Shown piece by piece: positions 128 to 50,303 of a stretch of DNA of 64,000 nucleotides. The position numbers and the translations under genes are program-made. Positions within the stretch are counted from its first letter, which is position 1, and each line of letters opens with the position of its first letter. Below the pieces are notes generated by a model. It was not told where the DNA came from. It saw nothing but the letters and a program-made list of their open reading frames with translations, and did not search any database. The stretch spans positions 308,822,001 through 308,886,000 of the forward strand of contig OZ024741.1 of assembly GCA_964016885.1 (NCBI GenBank), written 5' to 3'. The stretch comes from Eledone cirrhosa. Lineage: Eukaryota.

Positions 128-176
128 AGTTTAAGCAAAGAATCGCTGCTTTCACCCTTAACGGGATCTTCTGAAA
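128..176 (-). ncRNA. Type I hammerhead-like motif, CAGAAGA core variant (inverted pLTR copy)
   Basis: Reverse complement reads ttt CAGAAGA tcccgttaagggt GAAA gca..tgc TT aaact; stem I only 3 bp in this copy. Confidence 0.55.
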
Positions 177-208
177 AATCAATCTGTGAACGCAGAAGTA
201 AATATTTC

Positions 209-803
209 GACCCCAGCACATAAATATAGTAACATTTTTTATAGAAATACCATTAAAATTTCTTACTCTACGACTCTTAACCTTGCACATAACATCACAG
301 CTTCAAATTTAGCTAAATTACCTAGCCGTAGGAACACGTGCAACCCTATAGCTAGTACTAACTGTAATTGTAGGAATCGGGTTGACTGCCCCCTATCCGG
401 GAAATGCCTCTCTAGTAACATTGTCTACAAATGTAAGGTTGAAACACCCACGTCCCGTAGGGCCTACATAGGGTTAACCGCCAATAGATTCAAGCAGCGT
501 CTTTACATGCATACCCATTCTTTTCTTAACCCTTTAAGAAGGAATATGACGTCACTTTCAGCTTATATCTGGAGTCTAAAAGACAACCACACCCAATATA
601 AGTTACACTGGGAGATCCTAGCTGAGGCTAGATCGTATAACGGAAATAAAAGACCATGTGACCTCTACGCCGCTGAGGCCCTGGAAATACTCTACGCCAA
701 AGCCCACATCTTAAACAAAAGATCTGAGGCAATTTCCGCTTGTAAACATAAATTGCACAAAACTTTCCTGTATTACAGCCCCACATTATACCCTAACGCA
801 TAG
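209..803 (+). pseudogene. PLE GIY-YIG endonuclease domain fragment
   Basis: IF..NTIKISYS, CNCRNRVDCPLSGKCL, NIVYKC..AYIGLT..FKQRL..H, LNKRSE motifs typical of Penelope endonucleases. The ORF-track start (186-208) is borrowed from the inverted pLTR. Confidence 0.9.
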
Positions 804-3501: not shown

Positions 3502-3576
3502 TATATGTATACATATATATATATGTATACATTCTGTTAATGTCGATATGATTCTTATATCGTTATTAATTGGGCA

Positions 3577-3700
3577 TCCACTGATGAGTTTATAAGTGCC
3601 CGCTTGTGTATAAAACTATGGATTATATACAAGTTTCTACATAACATGGAAATTATTTATTCCAAATTGTAGAAATCTTATAACGAAACGGCCGTCTGGA
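3577..3700 (+). ncRNA. Type I hammerhead with four-way-junction stem II
   Basis: tcca CTGATGA gtt(t)ataag..two sub-helices..cttataac GAAA cggccg TC tgga; covarying homologue at 49918-50040. Confidence 0.85.
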
Positions 3701-3889
3701 AGGAAAGAGATATTTATTTAATAATGTCTCATATAAAATAATACAACCAATTATCCACGAAATACTGATTAGTTAGCACTCCAAACACTAAATTGGGATA
3801 ATACTTAAGTATATCCTAATGTTTGTTGAGTGAGATGGAGTTGGTCGGAGTATCGCTTAAGGCTTTCTCTGTTTATGTATTGAATTGTA

Positions 3890-9136: not shown

Positions 9137-9439
9137 ATACCAACATACATACATACATACATACATACATACATACATACATACATACATACATACATAC
9201 ATACATACATACGTACATACATACATACATAGGTGAGTGCATGTATGTATGTGTTTGTGTATATAAATGGTGTTGGTGGTGGAATATAGATGGAAGGGGA
9301 GGTCAATGTGTTTGTTTTAATGTGTCTGTTGTGTTCCTAAACAGCAAATCGATACCCATTGAAAAAGATTAACAATTTTTTTTTAAGAGGATAAGATTAT
9401 CTAGGCACTTTCTTTCTTTTGTATTGTCAGGTTCAGATT

Positions 9440-11771
9440 GGTGGCGGTGGTGGTGGTAGTGGTGGTTGTGGTGGTGGTGGTAGTGGTGGTGGTTGTGGTG
9501 GTGGTGGTAGTGGTGGTTGTGGTGGTGGTGGTAGTGGTAGTGGTGGTGGTTGTGGTGGTGGTGGTAGTGGTGGTTGTGGTAGTGGTGGTGGTTGTGGTGG
9601 TGGTGGTAGTGGTGGTTGTGGTGGTGGTGGTGGTGGTAGTGGTGGTGGTGGTGGTAGTGGTGGTGTTGGTAGTGGTGGTGGTAGTGGTGGTGGTTGTGGT
9701 GGTGGTGGTAGTGGTGGTGGTTGTGGTGGTGGTGGTTGTGGTGGTGGTGGTAGTGGTGGTGGTAGTGGTGGTGGTTGTGGTGGTGGTGGTAGTGGTGGTG
9801 GTTGTGGTGGTAGTTGTGGTAGTGGTGGTTGTGGTGGTGGTTGTGGTGGTGGTTGTGGTGGTGGTGGTAGTGGTGGTTGTGGTGGTGGTGGTAGTGGTAG
9901 TGGTAGTGGTTGTGGTGGTAGTTGTGGTAGTGGTGGTTGTGGTGGTGGTTGTGGTGGTGGTGGTGGTAGTGGTGGTGGTAGTGGTGGTGGTTGTGGTGGT
10001 GGTGGTAGTGGTGGTGGTTGTGGTGGTAGTTGTGGTAGTGGTGGTTGTGGTGGTGGTTGTGGTGGTGGTGGTTGTGGTGGTGGTTGTGGTGGTGGTGGTA
10101 GTGGTGGTTGTGGTGGTGGTGGTAGTGGTGGTGGTTGTGGTGGTAGTTGTGGTGTTGGTGGTGGTAGTGGTGGTGGTTGTGGTGGTGGTGGTTGTGGTGG
10201 TGGTGGTAGTGGTGGTAGTAGTGGTGGTGGTTGTAGTGGTGGTGGTAGTGGTGGTGGTTGTGGTGGTAGTTGTGGTGGTGGTAGTGGTGGTAGTGGTGGT
10301 GGTAGTGGTGGTGGTTGTGGTGGTAGTTGTGGTAGTGGTGGTTGTGGTGGTGGTTGTGGTGGTGGTGGTAGTGGTGGTGGTAGTGGTGGTGGTTGTGGTG
10401 GTGGTGGTAGTGGTGGTGGTTGTGGTGGTAGTTGCGGTAGTGGTGGTTGTGGTGGTGGTTGTGGTGGTGGTGGTTGTGGTGGTGGTTGTGGTGGGGGTGG
10501 TAGTGGTGGTTGTGGTGGTGGTGGTAGTGGTGGTGGTTGTGGTGGTAGTTGTGGTGGTGGTGGTGGTAGTGGTGGTGGTTGTGGTGGTGGTGGTTGTGGT
10601 GGTGGTGGTAGTGGTGGTAGTAGTGGTGGTGGTTGTAGTGGTGGTGGTAGTGGTGGTGGTTGTGGTGGTAGTTGTGGTGGTGGTAGTGGTGGTAGTGGTG
10701 GTGGTTGTGGTGGTGGTTGTGGTGGTAGTTGTGGTGGTTGTAGTGGTGGTTGTGGTGGTTGTGGTAGTTGTGGTGGTGGGTGTGGTGGTGGTTGTGGTGG
10801 TGGTGGTGGTAGTGGTGGTAGTTGTGGTGGTGGTTGTGGTGGTGGTTGTGGTGGCGGTTGTGGTGGTGGTGGTGGTAGTAGTGGTAGTGGTGGTGGTTGT
10901 GGTGGTGGTGGTGCTTGTGGTGGTGGTTGTGGTGGTGGTGGTGGTAGTGGTGGTAGTGGTGGTGGTTGTGGTGGTGGTTGTGGTGGTGGTTGTGGTGGTG
11001 GTGGTGATGGTGGTGGTGGTAATGGTGGTGGTGGTGGTGGTGATGGTGACGGTGATGGTGGTGATGGTGGTGGTGGTGATGGTGGTGGTGGTGGTGGTGA
11101 TGGTGATGGTGGTGGTGGTGATGGTGGTGGTGGTGGTGGTGGTGATGGTGATGGTGGCGATGGTGGCGATGGTGATGGTGGTGGTGATGGTGGTGATGGT
11201 GATGGTGGTGGTGATGGTGATGGTGATGGTGGTGATGGTGGTGATGGTGATGGTGGTGGTGATGGTGATGGTGGTGATGGTGGTGATGGTGATGGTGGTG
11301 GTGAGGGTGATGGTGGTGGTGATGGTGACGGTGGTGATGGTGATGGTGGTGGTGATGGTGATGGTGGTGATGGTGATGGTGATGGTGGTGGTGGTGATGG
11401 TGGTGGTGGTGGTGGTGGTGATGGTGATGGTGGTGGTGGCGATGGTGATGGTGGTGGTGGCGATGGTGATGGTGGTGGTGGTGATGGTGATGGTGATGGT
11501 GGTGGTGGCGATGGTGATGGTGGTGGTGGCGATGGTGATGGTGATGGTGGTGGTGGCGATGGTGATGGTGGTGGTGGTAGTGTCGACGGAGGCGATGGCA
11601 TAATTGGCAATGTCATGACATTGGTAGTCTCTGTTGTGCTGATAAAGATTATGGCGATGATAGTGATGATGGAGGTGATGGAGGTGATGATGGAGGTGAT
11701 GGAGGTGATGATGGTGAAGATGAATGTGGCAATGGCATTTATAGTGAAGATGTCCGTGATGGAGATGATAG

Positions 11772-11805
<34 letters not shown>

Positions 11806-11933
11806 GGTGGTGGTGGTGGTGCGGATTGTGGAGATGTTCGTGGCGATCACGAGGATGATGGTGATCATGACGACGGTGATGATGATAATGATGAACATAA
11901 TGATGATGATGAACATGATGATGATAGTGGTGG

Positions 11934-11983
<50 letters not shown>

Positions 11984-12020
11984 CACATGATGATGACAAT
12001 GATGGTGGTGATGATAATGA
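9440..12020. repeat. 2.6-kb in-phase trinucleotide array: GGT/TGT/AGT, then GGT/GAT, then degenerate (GAT)n
   Basis: Phase is kept throughout; higher-order duplication with ~402-bp period (10211 vs 10613); several long low-complexity ORFs. Confidence 0.9.
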
Positions 12021-14515: not shown

Positions 14516-14882
14516 AATACAATCCGTCCTGGCTATAATAATACAATCTCACCCTAACGTATGAAATTATATTTCCATGGGGTAGTTGAAGAAAAGATTA
14601 GATACTTGTATTTTTTTGTCGCTTATGTCAGCTTTTCATGTGCACGTTTGCTAATATTTATGTGTGATTGCGCGTGCGTGCGTGTATATATATTGGTGGA
14701 GTTCTTTGTTGGCGAAAATTCTAGTTATTTGAATTCTACCAACCAATCAGTGTGTTCTTTGCACACCTTCTTCCTCAGTTTTTGGAGGTCAAGTGATTAC
14801 ACGGTATTGCACTGCTAGAATCAGGAAGCTAGTAGATTCGTTAATCTTGTAGATCCTATAGATCGATATGTTATTGTATAGG

Positions 14883-15012
14883 CTCCTTGCTGATGAGTTG
14901 TAATTAGCCCGATTGCGTAACATTCACCGATATTACGCAATCCCCTGCATATAACGCATTTAATAACTGTTATAGGCAGAAGGTTACAATGAAACAGGAT
15001 TCCATCCAGGAG
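14883..15012 (+). ncRNA. Type I hammerhead with four-way-junction stem II (diverged)
   Basis: ctccttg CTGATGA gttgtaatt agccc [gattgcgtaa/ttacgcaatc][ctgcatataac/gttataggcag] ggttacaat GAAA caggattcca TC caggag; stem III closing pair mismatched. Confidence 0.7.
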
Positions 15013-15075
15013 ATCGACCAGTGTAACCAATACCTGAACACTGCCATACAACTCACTAACTAGACCTGAGGAGGC

Positions 15076-19787: not shown

Positions 19788-19999
19788 GGCGACCTACGTA
19801 GGAAATCGTATTATCGTGAACTCCACAGGTTTGTTGTTTTCAGTTGTTTCAAATTGCCAGTTATGGAAAATTTTTGTTGTTAAGTGTTTATAAGTTCACA
19901 TATATTGCTTTCTGAAAAAGACACTCAATAATATTGGGGCATTGAGCCCAAAATTTAAACTTTATTTTATCAAACAAAAATTTCTTTGAAAAAAAAAAC

Positions 20000-20371
20000 A
20001 TGGACGGCATTCAGCTACCCAAAACTGCTGACAGCGTTTCTAACAGACTAACATCTCCCACCACCACCACCACCACCATTGTAAACCTTGCTACGGTTGC
20101 CAACACTGAAAATATAAGTAATAGCAGTGGCAATTATTTACTTTTGTCACATGCTGACATGGATTTCCCGCCATTACCAATGTCTACAGGTTTTAAAGCC
20201 GCCATGCCCACCACCACAATGTCAAAAAGAACAACCAACACCACAGCAACAACTGAAACAAAAAATAAATTATTAACTCGTGATATCGAAATGGATTCTC
20301 CCAAAATCGACTCTTCCACACAGAACGCTACTGACACCACCACCACCACAACTGAAACTAAAAATAATAAT

Positions 20372-20402
<31 letters not shown>

Positions 20403-22009
20403 GCAACAACAGTAACAATAAGAATAACAACAACAACATCAACACCAGCGCAAAACCAAATGTGTCGTTTGCTAAACCCGCAAACAAAAACGAAACGGTT
20501 GAGGTAAGCCAGGAAGAATTGAATGAAACCAAGCGAATGGTAAACAAATATGGCTACAGGGTCAGCCCCCCTCCCCATCTAATACCATGGAGCATCGGCG
20601 CCTATACACCGTATCATATCGCACAGTAAATATTAAAACACGCCGAGTGGAACGGGCATCCGAGTCCCAGATACAAAAAGCTTTGGGACATGTGTGGGCT
20701 CAAAAAACCCACATCAGACGTGGGCAAAAATATGGAACCGTGGACGTGTTCTTTGGAACCCCACAGGAAGCCAGAGATCACTCCATAGACCCATTAAAAA
20801 GTGACGAGTTCACGCTCGTCCCAAGCTATTGTGGTCAGAGGCTGGTAAAGATCAGGGTGAGCCAGGTTCCGCCAGTCATTGAAATTCCCTGGCTAATGGC
20901 TGCCGTCCTCGCCAACAATGAGGCCGACACAAAAATAATTGAGGTGATAAAAGTAAAGCAGGAGAACTGGTCCGTATCTGGGATGGAGCTCCTGGTCCAA
21001 GCGGACCAAAAAAAACAGACAGGAAATTCCAGAGGTGATAGACCTCAATGACGGCAGCCACCTCACCGTAATCGTTGAGGGTAGAAGGCCTAGGTGTGTC
21101 GTTTGGGGCGAAGGAACCCACCTAAAGGCTTTCTGCCCTCAGGCTAAAAAGTTGAGGCCACCTCTCCTGCCCACCCCAGTGACTCAACCATCAAAACCAG
21201 CAGCAGAAATGGCAGCAACAACTGTAGCAACAACAACAGAAGCAACTGTAGCAGCAACAACAGCAGCAACAGTAGCAAAACCAACACCACCACCACCCAC
21301 CGCGCCAGAATTAGCACCAGCGCCTCCACCATCCACCACGCCACAACCAAAACCAACACCTGTGGGGGATTTTCCACTCCCCGACCTGTCACAACTGGAG
21401 ACAGACTGTGACGACGAGGAGGAGTGGCAAACTGTATCTGGAAAAAAGAAAAAAAAAAGAAGCCAGAAAAGAAAAAAATCCCCTTCCTTCGCCCTCCAAA
21501 AACAAAATGCAGGGCGAAACAAACAAACAAACAAAAAAGTTAAGACAGCTATGTCACCACCCACACTAGCATCACCAGCCTCATCACCACAAACACCAAC
21601 ACCCTCACCATCATTAACCCCAACACCACCATCACCAACACCACAAAAATCACCAACAAGCGAAACAGAAACAAACCCACAACAAACGCAAACAAAACAA
21701 AGCAACCAAAACGATACACACTATACAGCATTAGATTTGAACAACAACCAATTATTACACAACATCCAACACAACACCACATCACAGAAAAAGACTATAC
21801 AACACCCCAAAATTCACACCACCCCACCCATACAAATCACTCGCATCACACAGAAAACGTACACGACGCTAAAATTAAAATTCCCCAAGGACATCGGAGA
21901 CTTCCGACAAACACTCTCTAGGAGGATTTATAAAGACATCCTTCCAGAAGGGGCCACAAACAGTGAGAAGGACGGAAAAACCATCCTTCCTCCACAAGAA
22001 GTGAGGTAA
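20000..22009 (+). pseudogene. LINE ORF1 (three frames), with degenerate CCHC zinc knuckle
   Basis: ATG at 20000; VIVEGRRPRCVVWGEGTHLKAFC resembles CX2CX4HX4C; Pro/Thr-rich tail with basic cluster. Confidence 0.75.
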
Positions 22010-22059
22010 GTGGTCTTTCCCATCTTTTCCCACACCTTTTCAACATAACCTTACACAGA

Positions 22060-25000
22060 ATAGGCAGCATAAATGCGCGTGGCCTGGGGTCGTCATGGAA
22101 GCAGGGCCGCCTGCTCAATAACCTCAGGTCACTAAATATAGATGTGGTGTCCATCAGCGAGACCAGAATCTCCGAAGCACGAGCCTTCGCACCGATCTTC
22201 AGCGGCTACGATGTATACGCATCTCCCAGTCGTCCAGGATCGGGGGGGGGGGCAGTGCTTTTTCGGAGAAGCTTGGATCTCACCATATGGGCCATCTTCC
22301 TGGACCCAGAAGGTAAGTCGGTGGTGCTGGACGTGACTGGCAGCGAGGGCAATGCTTTCAGGCTAGTAGCCGTCTACGCCCCAACAGGGGCAGGACGGCC
22401 AGATTTCTTCAGACAACTAGAGACCTTTCTTGGAACGTCCCGCTCTTTAGTGTTAGTGGGCGACTGGAACGGTATCTTAGATGCACGCTGGAATTATGTG
22501 GATCTAGTAGACAGGGCAGGAGGGTGTAAAAGCTTCAACAACCTGCTCAGACGTTTTGAACTGTCTGACAGGTATAGACTGGATTATCCTAATGTGCCAA
22601 TGTGGACATGGGCAAACCGCATCGGGTCATCCAGATCGTATTTAGATAGAGTATTCTGTAGGGAAACAGATAAGGCTAGTGTAGGTTGTCCACAATTGAA
22701 AGTAGTCGACTACACGGACCACACATTTGTGATCTGTGAAGTTGACTTAGATAGGCTCCATAGGCAAGGGCCCGGCTATTGGAAGCTGAACGCGTCGTTC
22801 TCGGCGCACAAAGCTTACAGAGACCGGATTAGCGAATTAGTTAAGCGTGCGTTGACGGGTGCGATCGTCAGTAGAATCGATAAGGTTTGGCAAAGGAGTA
22901 GTGATAGAGGAAAATAGAGTAAAGGGATAGTTAGTTAGAAAGCTAGAAGAGGCGTTTAGGACAGGCATCGCAACCGACGTGCGTGCGGCGAGATTGGCAC
23001 TCGACCAATTCTTCAACGCAAAACATGACGTTTGCGTTGTCAGAGCTAGAGCGCGTGCTCTAAGACACGAAGGGACGAAAGCCGTTCAATGGGCCCGGGT
23101 GGTGGAGGCACGATGTGGCAACAAGTCCACAATTCGGTCTTTGCCTGATCAAAACGGGCGCATGCTGCTCGAACTCGAACAGATGTATGCGGCTTTTCAA
23201 CAGCACTTTGCTCAATTGTTCGGGAGCGGCGGCGGGCCGGATCGGAGTATGGACTTCGGTGCATACCTCGACGGACTGCCGTGGCTCTCGACGACCGCAG
23301 CGCAGTACTGCGAAAAGCCGATAACAGCCAATGAAATACTGGAAGCGATGTCTGACTGCACGAGGGGTAAATCGCCAGGTTTGGATGGTCTACTCTACGA
23401 GCTTTATGCGTATATGCCATACTTGTTCGACGACCACTTGGCAGATGTCTACAGTAATTGGCAGCAAAACGGGAACATTCCCAGCTTTGTGAGCCAGGGA
23501 GTGGTGGCGCTGCTGAGAAAAGACCCGAACAAGGGGGACTTAAGATTTTGGCCAAGGTGTTAGCAAAGAGACTGGCGCTTGTCGTCGGTGATCTGTTGGG
23601 AGAGGCGCAGACATTCGCCCGTTCGGACGGATCAATCCACGACAACCTCCATCTCATGCGATACATCATAGAGAGGGTGGTTAAGGAACTCGGCACGGGT
23701 GGGGCCCTGATCAACTTGGATCAATCTAAAACATTTGATAGGGTCGACCATCGGTACCTGGCTGCGGTCCTCGAGGTGGCCGGCTTCGGGCCCGTTTTTA
23801 GGGGCTGGATCGCTGCGATGCACAGCGACATCTGCTCGATTGTGAGGGTGAATGGTCACCTGTCGCAGCCTTTCAGCATCATGCGCTCGGTCCGCCAGGG
23901 TTGCCCCCTCTCGTCCCTCTTGTACGTACTGGCCCTCGAGCCGTTACTTCACAAATTGGAGACGATGAGAAGGATCCCACACGAACTGGGATGCGGGAGA
24001 TCCGTGTCAGCTTACGCCGACGACGTCACCGTGGTGGTGTCGAGCACCAAACACGTCAAGATGCTCGGCACCTCTTTCAAGGAATACGAGGTGACAGGAG
24101 CAAAGAAAAACCAGGAAAAGTCGGTGGGCTTGCAACTCGGCACCTGGAGAGGCAAGTCCATGTCGTCCGACAGCGTCGTGGGCGATGGACGGAAGGACCG
24201 GTTAAATTGCTCGGAGTCTGGTTCGGTCCGGACCTCCAGATGGAGAAAAACTGGAACGAGGTGACGAGCAGGGTGACCTCTCTCACCCAGAAATGGGCCG
24301 AGAGGAGGCTGTCTCTGAAAGGTCGGGCGGAGGTGCCGAATGCGTACATAGCGTCCGTCATCTGCTACCGCCTGACCGTCGTACCTTGCCCCCGCCCAAC
24401 TTTGACCAAAATGGAGCACCTGCTCTTCCGCTTTTTGTGGATGGGACGTGCTCCTAGGGTCAGACGATCCATTTGCTGTCAACACCCGTTGCGTGGAGGA
24501 CTAGGCATGCCGTCGCTGATGATGCGCAAACATGCGCCGAGGCTGCGATATCTCTGGTGCTTCCTTGACGGTGAACAGGTGTGGTCGCCGTTTGCCAGAC
24601 GCGTTTTTCCTCAGCTCGTCTCCTTGACGGGGCTGCAGTCCTCGATCAGGAAAAGACCCAGGGATAGTGCTTGGAAGCTGGAATGTCTCCAAGCGCTCAC
24701 CGCCCTCTACCAGCTGGGCACTAGTATCGGAAGAACATCCACCTTGGCGTTCTATAGAGGGCTAGTGGAGGGAAAGAGCGACGACATTCTCGGAGAGACC
24801 CTGGGCGTCGAAGATGATCCTCTGTTCGCTCTCTCTTCAAGAGAACTTTCAGACCGGGGCCTATGGACAACTTCCAGAAATCCTTGGCCTGGCAGTGCTA
24901 CCGGGGAACGTTGCCGGTTCGGGATAAGCTCTACAGGCACGAAGGTGCTGTCAGCCGAGATGCGTGCAGGGCGACGAAACCGTGCTGCACGCACTCGTTC

Positions 25001-25370
25001 AGAGCCCGGGGATTGCTGACTGTGGAGCTATGTCGAACAGCTGTTGTCGCGTGTAGGACGGATCCGGCTATCGACTGAGTCCATTGTGCAGATAGCCCCG
25101 CCATCCTCCTTTAAAGAGGTGGAAGGGCAGGCAGTTTTCATCTGCCTGGTGGCCATGGCGAAAGAGATTGCGTGGTAGACAAGGTTGAAAGGGCTGAAGA
25201 CGGACACTTTCCTCTTCGGCCAATCCCTGATTAACGTTTTCAAGTTTCACTTGAAGAGGAAAATCAGGGTGGAGAGGCAAGTGCTGTCTTCTAGTAAGTT
25301 TGTTGAAAGGTGGGTGAATGTAGCGAGTCTGGTCTGAGTGAACGGGCCCGCTCTGAGTATGCGCCTGTAG
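22060..25370 (+). pseudogene. LINE ORF2: apurinic-type endonuclease + reverse transcriptase, frameshifted
   Basis: SINARGL, SET, VYAP, GDWN, SYLDR, TDH, YWKLN; KSPGLDGL, LDQSKTFDRVDH, QGCPLS, YADD, GGLGMP. Confidence 0.92.
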
Positions 25371-25680
25371 ACTGAGGAGTGGGAAAACTGAGAGAGGGCG
25401 CTTGTCCTGGTGGTCAGGGTGACCGGGGTCTTTTGTGTGGTTTTCGCCACGAGTGACCTTCGGAGTTTTCCCCCTTTTTGGGGAATTTTTGTTGTTTGAA
25501 TTTTTTTGATTTCTAGCCCAATTTTGTTATAACCTGTTTACACGACCAAAACCCAATTTGTATCGTCCTGTACTGTTCTGTGCCGTCTCTAATGTTTTTC
25601 TTCATGTTGGCCCTTGTGGCCAATAAAGAAACCATTAAATCATTATTATTATTATTAATAATATTATTATTATTATTATT

Positions 25681-28045: not shown

Positions 28046-32800
<4,755 letters not shown>

Positions 32801-33912: not shown

Positions 33913-33953
<41 letters not shown>

Positions 33954-33954
33954 T

Positions 33955-34125
33955 ACAATACATTAACAGAGAAAGCTTTAAGCTATACTCTGACTGGCTA
34001 CCAACTCACTCAACAAACATTAGGATATACCTTAGTATAATCCCAATTTTACGTTTGGGGTGCTAACTATATGTATTTTGCGGAGAGCCAGTTGTATTAT
34101 TTTATATGAGACATAATTAAAATAT
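33955..34125 (-). mobile_element. pLTR-leader fragment of the four-way-junction hammerhead family
   Basis: Reverse complement of ~3720-3880 and ~50055-50210. Confidence 0.75.
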
Positions 34126-34196: not shown

Positions 34197-34458
34197 GGCT
34201 TTCCAAAAATAAATGTTGTGGTATTTATATATAAACACATATAAAAATACACAAAGGGGAAAATTTAAGGAAACGATCAAGATATGAAAAACCATCAAAT
34301 AACATGAATTAAAATTAAGTAACATAAAATACAAGTAGAGAAAAGTAAAGTATAAGTTATAAGTTTGAAAGGTAACAAAACGGAGATAGGTTTGGGATGG
34401 GAGGGGAGCGCGGGAGAGTGTGGTTAAAGTTTAATGTCGATTCCGTCGTCTTATGGGA

Positions 34459-36599
34459 TCATTGTTCAGGGGGAAAGAACTGGTCTATATGACTTGTAAG
34501 TAGCATAGTTTTTGTGCATGCAATTCGGCCAGTGTTCTGCGAGTCTATTGAGTAAGGGTCCTTTGGCGAATAGTATTTCGTAACTCTCGGAAATACAAAG
34601 GTCACAACAATTATGGCCTCCTGTGTAAGACCGCGCTCCCTGGAGTAGTTTCCATTTGAGCGTAAAGGGTATGGAGTTCCTTTTAGGTTCCAGACATGGG
34701 CGGCGAGTGTTGTTTGGTTGGACTTGTCCGGGCGTCGAAAAGAATGGGTGTGTGCGTACCAACGGGTCTTAAAGTTGTTGGAGGTCATCCCGATATACGT
34801 CTTTCTCTCTTCATTAGGGCCTGAGATGACATCACATTTGTATACAATATTCTTTGTAAGGCATTTATTGTTGAAGGGGCATGCAGCCTTATCGTGGCAG
34901 TTGCACAGGACCTCAGTGCCGAGATGGGTTTCGGAGGTAGTAGACTTATTTAACATAGTAATATTAATATTGGCTAAGTTCCTAGCTAGATTTGGCGTAG
35001 TGGAGTAAGAGAGTCTGATTGTATTCTTATTAAAGATGGTGTAGTACCTATGCTGGGTGGGGAAGTGCTTGTGCAATAGAGTAAAGAAATTGTTTGCTAT
35101 AGGTGTAGATACCTCGCTGTTGAAGGGGGGGGGGGGGGGTGTAACAGCTAATTTGCTTCTTCCTATTCCTCCTGGGTGAGCGTGGGGCTATTCTGAGATA
35201 AGAGATCTTATCTTTAAAACCGCTACGAGCTAGGGCTTCGTTGTAATAAGGGGCCGCGGCCCTAAAGATATCCTCATTGGCAGAGAGGCCAAAGATCCTA
35301 AGGGAGACACTTTTAGCTAAATTATCTGTGATGTTCTTGGGGTGATTCGAGTTAACGTCTATATATCTAAGGGATTCGTTAGGTTTGTGGTACGGATAAT
35401 AAAGGGAGGTTTCTAAATCGAGAGTTACATCTAAGAAGTTGGCTTTAGTTAAACTCGAATCTATAGTTATTCTGGGGCCTAGGTTATTGAAGAAAGCGTT
35501 AAGGTTTTTCCGAAACCCATCGGTAGTCCTGGGGTTAATTTTATGCAGGGCAAAGAGGCCGTCATCTCGGTATAATCCGCCTGTAAGGCCTGTGAAGAGG
35601 GTTTTCATCCGGTTAAAGATAAACAAGCCCACCAGATCACTAATCTCAGCCGAGTCACTAGCACCCATGCTGACATCGAAGGGAGTCTCCGATTTTTTGT
35701 TGATCCAGTGGGACTCGTTATGGTACAAAAAAGTCTTACGTGCATGGAGGATCACATCCTGCTCGGCGTCGGTTATGGTGGTTAGGTTTCTTGCGAAAGC
35801 AATTGCATCCTTCAGCAGGGACTCAGAAATGGAGACGTAGTAATCCTCAATGTCAAGTTGCAGGAAACGGGTGTTGTGTTTGTCAGGCAGTTCTTGGAAC
35901 CATGAGATTGCTTCGGATGTTCTATTCCAGAGTGGGAGAGGTGAGGCTGCACGCAGTGTCGGTAGTATCCTGTCCAGGATCTTCTTGCTGACAGATCCTA
36001 TGTCGTATTTTGTGGGGTTTATTAGCCGGACCGATGGTTTATTGGTGAAGTTTCCCTTGTGGTCCTTAAGGGGCCTTTACCCACAAAGGTTCAGTCCTAT
36101 CTTCAAATTTAAGGGAAATGGCGATGTATTTTCCGGCTAAGTTTGTGTCTGTCAGTACTGTTTCATCCACGTTTTTGTAATTTGCTGTAATCGCATTATT
36201 AACCAGCTTCCTATAGGTATCCTGGTTAACCTCATAGACGTTTTTTGTTTTGTCGGAAGGGACGTGGAGATTCGGGGAACTCTTCATTTTCTGTACTTTG
36301 TCTCTTAAGTCAGTCTGGAATGGAATGTTGACTCTGAGGAATTTAATATTTTTGATCATTTTGAAGAGATCTTCCTCAAAAGGTTCAAGTAAACTGTTGG
36401 TGGGTGGTGCCTTATTTGATTTAAAGCCGAACTTCTCATTGTTGGTTGATGCTACATCAGGGTGGTCGAAGAAAAAGGATCTCCATCTAATGCGTTTGAT
36501 GAACTCATCGGTCCTTCTAATAAGAGTTTTTAAGTACAATTTCCTTGGTGGGATCGGTATGTTTTTCATGGAGGTATCGAGGTCAAGTTTGGTCAGCAT
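34459..36599 (-). pseudogene. PLE polyprotein (RT + GIY-YIG), frameshifted
   Basis: SMKNIPIP..FIKRIRWR, PSDKT.N.Y, FDVSMGA.DSAEISDLVGL, GLYRDDGL, NFLDVTLDL, YI...SNHP, CNC....CP...KCL..NIVYKC..TYIGMT. Confidence 0.93.
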
Positions 36600-36777
36600 C
36601 GTTTATTGGTGATGGTTATTAGGGGCACGTTGGCGGGCTAGATGTATGTAGATCCAGGGTTAAATCTAAAAATCTCCATCCTTTAATCCCACCATGACCT
36701 CTACCCCCCTCCCCAAACCACTACCCTTCTCTTACCATGACAAAATGTGTAAATACCAGAAATTTACATTGACAGTC

Positions 36778-36828
36778 GGCTTTCTGATGATTTCCTCCGA
36801 ATGAAACAGTTCTAGTCCTGTAGAAGCC
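36778..36828 (+). ncRNA. Type I hammerhead in the inverted 5' pLTR
   Basis: ggcttt CTGATGA t-ttc ctcc gaa-t GAAA cag ttctagtc ctg TA gaagcc; GUA cleavage triplet. Confidence 0.85.
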
Positions 36829-36907
36829 ATTTCTATATTAAATTACTTTTACTCTGCTATGTATTGAGTACCTTACTTACTGTGGTTATCCTCGATTTAA
36901 CCCGGGA

Positions 36908-49722: not shown

Positions 49723-49917
49723 CAATGTGTGTGAGTGTGTGTGTATATATATATATATATGTTTTTGGCGGTAGTCTCCTTTCTCCTATTTTCGGGACAG
49801 TGTGAGATTTTCTTTAGAACTGCTGGACTAACAACCTAGCAGCTCCCTCAAGCACTGATGGTGATTATCGCTAAATATTGATGTTGATTTGGTTATCAAT
49901 ATTAATATTATTGGGCA

Positions 49918-50040
49918 CCCACTGAAGAATTATAAGAGCCCACTTGAATAAGTATCTGTTGATCTTATACAAGCTTCTACATAATTTGGTATAATTTCAC
50001 CCAACTTGTAAAAATCTTATAATGAAACGAGTCGTCTGGG
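49918..50040 (+). ncRNA. Type I hammerhead with four-way-junction stem II
   Basis: ccca CTGAAGA attataag..cttataat GAAA cgagtcg TC tggg; compensatory changes relative to 3577-3700. Confidence 0.85.
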
Positions 50041-50303
50041 AAGTAATATATTTGATATATCTCATATGAAATGATACAGCCAATTTTCCACACAATACAA
50101 TTAGTTAGCACCCCGAACGTTTAATTAGGAATATACTCAGGTATTTCTTAATGTTTGTTGAGTGAGTTGGAATTTGGCCGGAGTATCGCTATTAGCTTTC
50201 TCCGATTATGTATTTATATATATATCTTCCTGCTATATCAAGCGTTAACCTAATATATACCTTCCATATACTGTACCGATTGTGTTGTTATTTCTGTTTA
50301 CCT

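Follow-up and report, generated by a model that had tools for sequence, protein, structure and literature searches.

The 64,000-nt stretch of Eledone cirrhosa DNA analysed here, which we call the window, raises the question of how a hammerhead ribozyme can house a large branched domain in stem II and keep its stems I and II in contact. Large stem II inserts usually destroy the contact between loop I and loop II. An earlier note on the window had proposed a hammerhead with an unusually large, branched stem II and a candidate pseudoknot reaching back to the strand before stem I. We found that the window carries a type I hammerhead motif with a branched stem II in non-autonomous Penelope-like repeats. 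This assignment is well supported, and the large branched stem II is now seen in nine families. The setting, high-copy non-autonomous Penelope-like repeats with a palindromic stem III, was overlooked in the earlier reading.

Three copies of the motif were identified in the window (Table 1). Each consists of CUGANGA, a stem II insert (97, 95 and 94 nt in copies 1, 2 and 3, respectively), GAAA, a short stem III, an NUH triplet and an open-ended stem I of 4-5 bp, which is the type I topology. The hammerhead of copy 3, which belongs to the old family c3, is probably impaired. An Rfam scan of the window gave no hammerhead family among the best 150 of 229 matches at E up to 1; the matches listed were to miRNA only, driven by microsatellite. 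Many hammerhead-like cores with a short stem II were also observed in other repeat families of the window (6617+, 6534-, 45747+, 17274-, 39549-, 36784+, 15386+, 5010- and 13403+), with 6534- and 6617+ forming an inverted pair. Among the other repeats are a degenerate LINE at 19946-25526 (+), with an ORF1-like region, an endonuclease (PF03372) and a reverse transcriptase (PF00078), together with a LINE fragment at 31705-32458, and a 2.6-kb GGT/GAT-rich simple repeat at 9439-12020 with strong GC skew and long low-complexity ORFs.

Table 1. Features of the branched hammerhead copies in the window (positions counted from its first letter)
Feature	Position	Strand	Remarks
Repeat copy 1 (family c1), 5'-truncated	3530..3888	+	full unit ~760 nt, without ORF, flanked by (TA)n tracts
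Candidate pseudoknot, 5' strand GGGC	3572..3575	+	
Stem I, 5' strand	3577..3580	+	partner 3697-3700
Core CUGAUGA	3581..3587	+	from sequence
Stem II, 5' strand, one U bulged	3588..3596	+	partner 3677-3684
Junction strand, ~6 nt	3597..3602	+	contains GCCC 3598-3601, candidate pseudoknot 3' strand
Sub-helix IIa	3603..3633	+	
Sub-helix IIb	3635..3674	+	
Core GAAA (3685-3688), palindromic stem III (ACGGCCGT, 3688-3695) and GUC	3685..3696	+	predicted cut after 3696
Tail of copy 1, ~190 nt	3697..3888	+	hairpin 3707-3730, cross-family motif block; ends at fixed 3' junction with (TA)n
Repeat copy 2 (family c2), 5'-truncated	49762..50225	+	unit ~695 nt
Hammerhead of copy 2	49913-50040	+	GGGC 49913-49916; core CUGAAGA 49922-49928; GCCC 49938-49941; GUC, predicted cut after 50036
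Repeat copy 3 (old family c3), decayed	14692..15062	+	ends approximate, by eye
Hammerhead of copy 3	14880-15010	+	core CUGAUGA 14890-14896; AGGC/GCCC; stem III mismatched
Tail-only fragment, c5-like family	33949..34121	-	separate insertion beside a Penelope-like element

We identified nine families of the branched motif (c1, c2, c3, c4, c4b, c5, c7, c8 and c9) in the 3.0-Gb genome (1796 contigs), the last six of which were recovered by HMM rounds on flanks and on DNA picked by position. The family sets are the best-scoring part of 26-40 matches each and hold 20-35 rows; a single row of c2 type is included in the c1 set, and the c4 set includes three of c4b type plus a duplicate. All nine consensuses carry CUGANGA, GAAA and the NUH triplet exactly, and the core was intact in 26 of 31 rows for c1, 31 of 33 for c2, 20 of 23 for c5, 23 of 25 for c8 and 19 of 20 for c4b. 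When eight consensuses, 37-87% pairwise identical on an imperfect alignment, were folded, the insert of 83-98 nt formed stem II, a junction strand of about 6 nt and the sub-helices IIa and IIb in all eight, with folding z-scores of -3.5 to -5.3 against 100 dinucleotide shuffles. In the ninth family, c9, inspection by eye and a fold of the region revealed the same parts. In the folded consensuses, stems I, II and III surround the core, with an open stem I of 4-5 bp and a stem II of 7-9 bp.

In a 13-sequence alignment, pairs changed on both sides were found at 3 of 4 positions of stem I, 6 of 6 of stem II, 7 of 10 of IIa and 2 of 6 of IIb. The covariation score was 0.410, compared with 0.187 for shuffled data (none of 500 as high) and 0.08-0.19 when slid. 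One alignment misregisters c4 and c7, and its counts for the knot and IIb were excluded from the evidence. Although relatedness inflates such scores, the branched secondary structure is well supported, because the changes separate family consensuses and span whole helices. The change in stem I that the earlier note reported between copies 1 and 2 (TCCA/TGGA to CCCA/TGGG) is present, and two sub-helices appear within the insert; when folded without constraints, copies 1 and 3 form both, and copy 2 forms IIa. The junction, which had been called four-way, is a three-way junction of stem II and the two sub-helices; four helices meet only if the pseudoknot is counted. At the base of stem II, the proposed exchange of G-C for A-U holds between copies 1 and 2, but the position is not paired in every family: 10.1-11.1 is G-C in c1, A-U in c2 and G-U in c3, and is mismatched as U.U in c5, C.A in c7, c8 and c9, A.C in c4 and A.A in c4b. 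The cut triplet is GUA or GUU in c4 and c5.

Other large hammerheads were seen in the same genome. A family with an 82-nt insert, c6 (L128:914+, L044:1002+ and L261-L280), was considered as a branched member and set aside, as it is rod-like and has no GGC/GCC; it is a type I hammerhead with U.U at 10.1-11.1 and a palindromic stem III, and sits about 450-760 nt after a GIY-YIG end. A hammerhead with an 87-nt insert lies 1046 nt after another GIY-YIG end (L333) and may be a separate insertion. It is possible that these two motifs are relatives of the ancestor of the branched form. Moreover, a type I candidate with a straight 98-nt stem II and a palindromic stem III was found at L066:994 (-).

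The candidate pseudoknot was examined at the level of families. The GGGC and GCCC strands of copies 1 and 2 are complementary, as had been noted, and homologues conserve this complementarity: GGC 5-9 nt 5' of the core and GCC 9-11 nt 3' of it occur in nine of nine families, while the helices turn over. A fourth pair is present in eight of the nine consensuses, which have at least four possible pairs between the two sides, like the pseudoknot hammerheads of Perreault 2011. It is an outer G-C in c1, c2, c3, c5, c8 and c9, and an inner G-C, giving GGCG/CGCC, in c4 (24 of 35 rows G-C, 6 G.U) and c7 (13 of 26 rows G-C, 3 G.U and 7 A.C). The knot of c4b has three pairs only, with G.A at the inner position in 19 of 20 rows and A.G at the outer in 18 of 20; this family is young and abundant, its 40 scored matches being 98-100% alike. 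The base at 3597, just before GCCC, is unusually variable, being A, T, G or C across c1 copies that are otherwise 96-97% alike.

The covariation of the pseudoknot that the earlier note had read among the three copies disappeared on this comparison. Each of the three families has GGGC/GCCC as its consensus; the differences cited in the note are variation between copies. The A-U pair of its 'gggca/tgccc' is found in just 6 of the 31 aligned c1 rows, 21 having A.A, and its 'ggct/agcc' comes from copy 3, a decayed copy with AGGC, an AUC triplet and a mismatched stem III, the family having GGGC, GUC and the palindrome ACGGAATTCCGT. Across the families, the covariation of the knot amounts to one coordinated change, GGGC/GCCC to GGCG/CGCC, with three pairs invariant. 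Counted by position, this is two compensatory swaps; counted by sequence, one pair was gained and one lost, each on both strands, probably in a single event. It can also be read as a one-base register shift around the invariant triplet, and the invariant GGC/GCC fits a protein or triple-helix contact equally well as plain pairing. No third knot sequence was found with a descriptor on 1.7 Mb, HMM rounds and two covariance models, and in metagenome and viral scans for the pattern GGGC..core..GCCC, none of 162 loci, among the matches listed, passed the stem filter. A longer stem I beyond the knot was considered for c1 and rejected, its 3' partner preferring a local hairpin. In our judgement the GGC/GCC pairing quite probably exists, and the conserved sequences suggest that a knot of three to five bp likely pins the stem II junction to the stem I side.

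The carriers of the motif are dispersed repeats with a fixed 3' end in (TA)n, 150-200 nt past the predicted cut, and scattered 5' starts. Tandem spacings are about 760 nt for c1, 695 for c2, 619 for c3, 859 for c4, about 990 for c5 and 611 for c7 (611-992 nt overall), and the longest ATG-started ORFs in the c1-c5 and c7 stretches encode 41-81 aa. Head-to-tail tandems with two hammerheads were found at seven 3.2-kb loci (L041, L044, L209, L215, L194, L069 and L305), a length too short to reveal long arrays, and c1 gave partial tandems only. The fixed 3' end, 5' truncation, partial tandems and microsatellite targets are features of a non-autonomous Penelope-like repeat, and the same insertion pattern has been described for Penelope-like elements (PMC8557442). 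A first look returned 3105, 1784 and 106 candidates for copies 1, 2 and 3, respectively, which are not copy numbers. The 40 scored per copy were 96-97%, 97-99% and 75-86% identical, the window's own copy aside, so that for copy 1 the value covers the other 39 of its 40 genome matches. With a covariance model, six matches at E < 1e-8 were obtained in 1.2 Mb taken by position (L091-L170 and L221-L260, 200 kb of which adjoins the window); a rough extrapolation with wide error puts the genome at about 15,000 copies of the motif.

The tails of c1, c2, c3, c4, c5, c7 and c8 have motif blocks in common and, ahead of the (TA)n junction, a terminal hairpin; in c1 the 3' end lies at either of two positions a few bases apart. 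The shared blocks are likely the start signal for the reverse transcriptase. The window also contains a broken Penelope-like element at 34225-36850 (-), with an N-terminal region, reverse transcriptase and GIY-YIG in three frames (the Pfam match to GIY-YIG is weak), and a GIY-YIG-like end of another such element at 162-803 (+). The tail-only fragment beside the former was considered as a pseudo-LTR or end of its ORF (34459-36602); most of the element's 40 genomic matches stop at about 34225, before the tail, and the tail is therefore a separate insertion. A descriptor search found no hammerhead within 1.3 kb after that ORF. In the genome DNA sampled, the branched motif followed none of 52 GIY-YIG ends, at least 15 of which are of one family and several of which have little downstream DNA; five precede an insert of 82 or 87 nt that folds into an irregular rod, and another precedes a 14-nt insert.

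Stem III, which the earlier note took for a covarying hairpin, is better described as a palindrome, such as that of c1. It is an exact palindrome in 6 of 8 consensuses and a near-palindrome in c2 and c7. Within a monomer it forms 1-2 bp in most families, and the hairpin has no predicted stability (energy 0) in 6 of 8; as a duplex it reaches -6.4 to -20.9 kcal/mol. The palindrome thus suggests cleavage as a dimer, and palindromic stems III are described as letting type I hammerheads cut in this way (PMC4209133, PMC7229834). From the palindrome and these known cases, we propose that two motifs, in tandem or on two RNAs, would join by pairing through stem III, and that cleavage of this dimer would release monomers of 610-990 nt that could circularise. 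A Penelope-type reverse transcriptase/GIY-YIG protein, most likely of the Hydra clade, would nick (TA)n, and copying would start 150-200 nt 3' of the cut and cross it on circular or uncut RNA, giving 5'-truncated and partial-tandem insertions.

When copies were selected solely by the 94 nt that lie 3' of the cut, 37 of 40 extended at least 73 nt across it and 3 started 3-6 nt before it, indicating that the template was mostly continuous across the cut, as uncut RNA or a re-joined circle. The three starts (L021:927, L564 and L565) lie inside the stem III palindrome, and may mark a stall of the reverse transcriptase at the dimer duplex. As for tail-only fragments, 7 of 12 had 5' ends just after the cut by BLAST; after inspection, about 5 of 12 lay at +9 to +23, TA/GA repeats having inflated some. 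Retrozyme circles have been shown in coral, mussel and axolotl (PMC7761336).

What, then, does the pairing do? In the explanation we favour, which we hold with a probability of about 0.55, non-coding repeats with a type I hammerhead at their 3' end likely ride on a Penelope-like retrotransposon, and a knot centred on GGC/GCC likely ties the three-way junction to the strand entering stem I, allowing the RNA to cut itself after GUC. The core, the cut triplet and the anatomy of the repeats are observed, and stems I, II, IIa and IIb are predictions supported by covariation. From the conservation and the one coordinated change, we infer that a knot of 3-5 bp replaces the usual contact between loop I and loop II and props up the stem I of 4-5 bp and the often mismatched 10.1-11.1 pair, with IIa and IIb serving as the scaffold on which the junction strand (about 6 nt) is presented. 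The fold would need such extra bracing because stem I is short and six of nine families have a mismatch at 10.1-11.1. One known route to bracing is a pseudoknot joining stem I to stem II; such knots raise the cleavage rate and are rescued by compensatory mutation (PMC3088659). The knot-free hammerhead fold of the monomer lies 1.7-10.9 kcal/mol above the minimum free energy, and the knot strands as a duplex contribute -5.4 to -9.0 kcal/mol, with the loop cost uncounted. Two reports count against this explanation: the purified Poseidon protein starts copying downstream of the hammerhead and inserts from uncut RNA, the hammerhead being unneeded in vitro (PMC11167929), and 8 of 9 predicted Xenopus retrozyme dimers failed to cleave (10.64898/2026.07.22.740005).

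The same pairing could instead act as a brake or switch. It would then form first during transcription, either bridging the core as a hairpin or making a knot that throws stems I and II out of alignment, leaving the RNA mostly uncut or circular and usable as a template, and cutting would occur only in the dimer. Several results point this way, the first two of which also count against an activating knot. A nested hairpin over the core, built from the same GGGC/GCCC pairs, is the minimum-free-energy fold of window copies 1 and 2, with a probability of 0.19 in c1, 0.26 in c2 and 0.90 in c5. Stem II exceeds stem I by 3-4 bp, an inversion of the lengths in canonical type I hammerheads. Moreover, in c2, c4, c4b and c7 the 3' strand of stem I can be taken up by a hairpin just downstream, which, in the predicted folds, would free the product or turn the motif off, and none of 40 copies begins exactly at the cut (one shares 3 nt before it, maybe by chance). 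A precedent exists in the CYDV-RPV satellite RNA, in which contacts between the loops of helix I and helix II control cleavage (PMC6155905; title cited in PMC3185516). However, the nested hairpin has a probability of at most 0.04 in six families (c3, c8, c9, c4, c4b and c7), in which the triplets are kept nonetheless, so that the conserved state is more likely a knot alongside stem II; the strict conservation of the catalytic core also argues against a brake. We rank a knot that activates cleavage above one that restrains it, and regard a brake as unlikely.

It is less probable still that the branched domain is a protein-binding or packaging module grafted into stem II, with GGC/GCC recognised by sequence and pairing only incidentally, and the ribozyme a minimal dimeric hammerhead without a tertiary contact. 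The triplets never swap in nine families, in which nearly every helix pair does, and c4b thrives on three knot pairs. In those Penelope elements of this genome that are linked to a protein, stem II is long (82 and 87 nt) but unbranched and lacks the triplets, and minimal Penelope hammerheads without tertiary contacts are described in PMC7761336. Against such a module, the conserved triplets complement each other exactly and keep fixed distances, and the pair next to them was gained on both strands and lost on both strands in c4 and c7. That the motif no longer cuts, and is a structured relic carried along by a repeat tail that spreads successfully, could be read from the mismatches at 10.1-11.1 in five or six families, the GUA/GUU triplets of c4 and c5, the weak folding of the monomer and the continuity of templates across the cut, but is very improbable, as CUGANGA, GAAA and NUH are exact in every consensus though identity falls to about 40%, such mismatches and triplets are common in Hydra-clade hammerheads (PMC8557442), and U10.1.U11.1, reported from natural hammerheads, is the best-tolerated mismatch.

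If the knot activates cleavage, the motif would be a natural answer to an engineering problem, with the contact kept despite a large insert and two arms left free. More tentatively, at somewhat less than even odds, these RNAs could form a subclass of hammerheads of about 130 nt, in which a three-way junction atop a long stem II presents a knot strand that docks on stem I. This would be a third kind of stem I/stem II contact, independent of the sequence of the appended hairpins, kept over at least nine families, and giving fast cleavage at cellular Mg2+ with two free cargo arms. If the knot brakes cleavage, it would help to explain how Penelope-type RNAs keep a ribozyme yet are copied across the cut. 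The nine natural sequence variants make an activating or braking role testable with few transcripts. A motif of about 15,000 copies slips through hammerhead searches because descriptors assume short stem II loops, and comparable large hammerheads are possibly absent from the annotations of other animals.

The closest known counterparts of the motif are the hammerheads of Hydra-clade Penelope elements, as given in PMC8557442 and its Files S1-S2. These are likewise of type I, with a stem I of 4-5 bp, a long stem II and a palindromic stem III, and the palindromes include ACTCGAGT, the same as in c4. Also shared are mismatches at 10.1-11.1 (U.U being frequent), GUA, GUU and GUC triplets, a position close to the 3' end, (TA)n targets, 5' truncation and partial tandems. 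In every row of File S2, stem II is given as a single stem capped by a single loop, about 35 nt at most, and these motifs are described as having no tertiary contacts, whereas the motif studied here has a branched insert of 83-98 nt, a conserved pairing to the 5' strand and carriers without an ORF. Similarly, non-LTR retrozymes, or non-autonomous derivatives of Penelope-like elements, are non-coding units with one type I hammerhead each, arranged head-to-tail in thousands of copies and probably moved by the proteins of those elements (PMC7229834; PMC7761336; 10.64898/2026.07.22.740005), and a bioRxiv preprint argues that non-coding hammerhead repeats are Penelope derivatives (10.64898/2026.07.22.740005). 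Retrozyme units measure 150-400 nt (51-972 nt in the same preprint), compared with 610-990 nt here. In contrast to retrozyme arrays, our repeats are mostly single truncated copies and have no canonical loop 1/loop 2 motif.

With the pseudoknot hammerheads, the motif shares Watson-Crick pairing between a strand beside stem I and one beyond stem II. Such knots are predicted in about 40% of hammerheads of all three types, including the human C10orf118 motif, and often accompany a stem II of 1-2 bp with a knot of 4-6 bp (PMC3088659; PMC12192606). Here, in contrast, stem II has 7-9 bp, and a three-way junction with two more helices houses the partner strand. The CYDV-RPV satellite hammerhead is of type III, has an extended stem II with a bulge, and makes its contact as an attenuating pseudoknot; we know of no three-way junction in it. 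It is alike in that a contact between helix I and helix II controls cleavage and that a double hammerhead is required, and differs in being part of a viral satellite RNA (also named BYDV; PMC6155905; PMC3185516). In canonical Schistosoma-like type I hammerheads, conserved loop nucleotides link a helix I of 6 bp to a helix II of 4 bp (PMC4209133), whereas our motif has 4-5 bp in stem I and 7-9 bp in a stem II that ends in a junction, which sets it apart from that form. The type-SGC permutation (PMC10085705) is not matched either, as the motif has the classical order. In the full-text, mostly open-access literature searched, we found no natural hammerhead with a knot strand in a three-way junction of stem II. 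Taken together, the motif is a new architectural variant, not a new class, and would work in the manner of a retrozyme's pseudoknot hammerhead: knots that join stem I to stem II and the hammerheads of Penelope elements are already known, and what appears to be new, in the literature searched, is a branched stem II that bears the knot.
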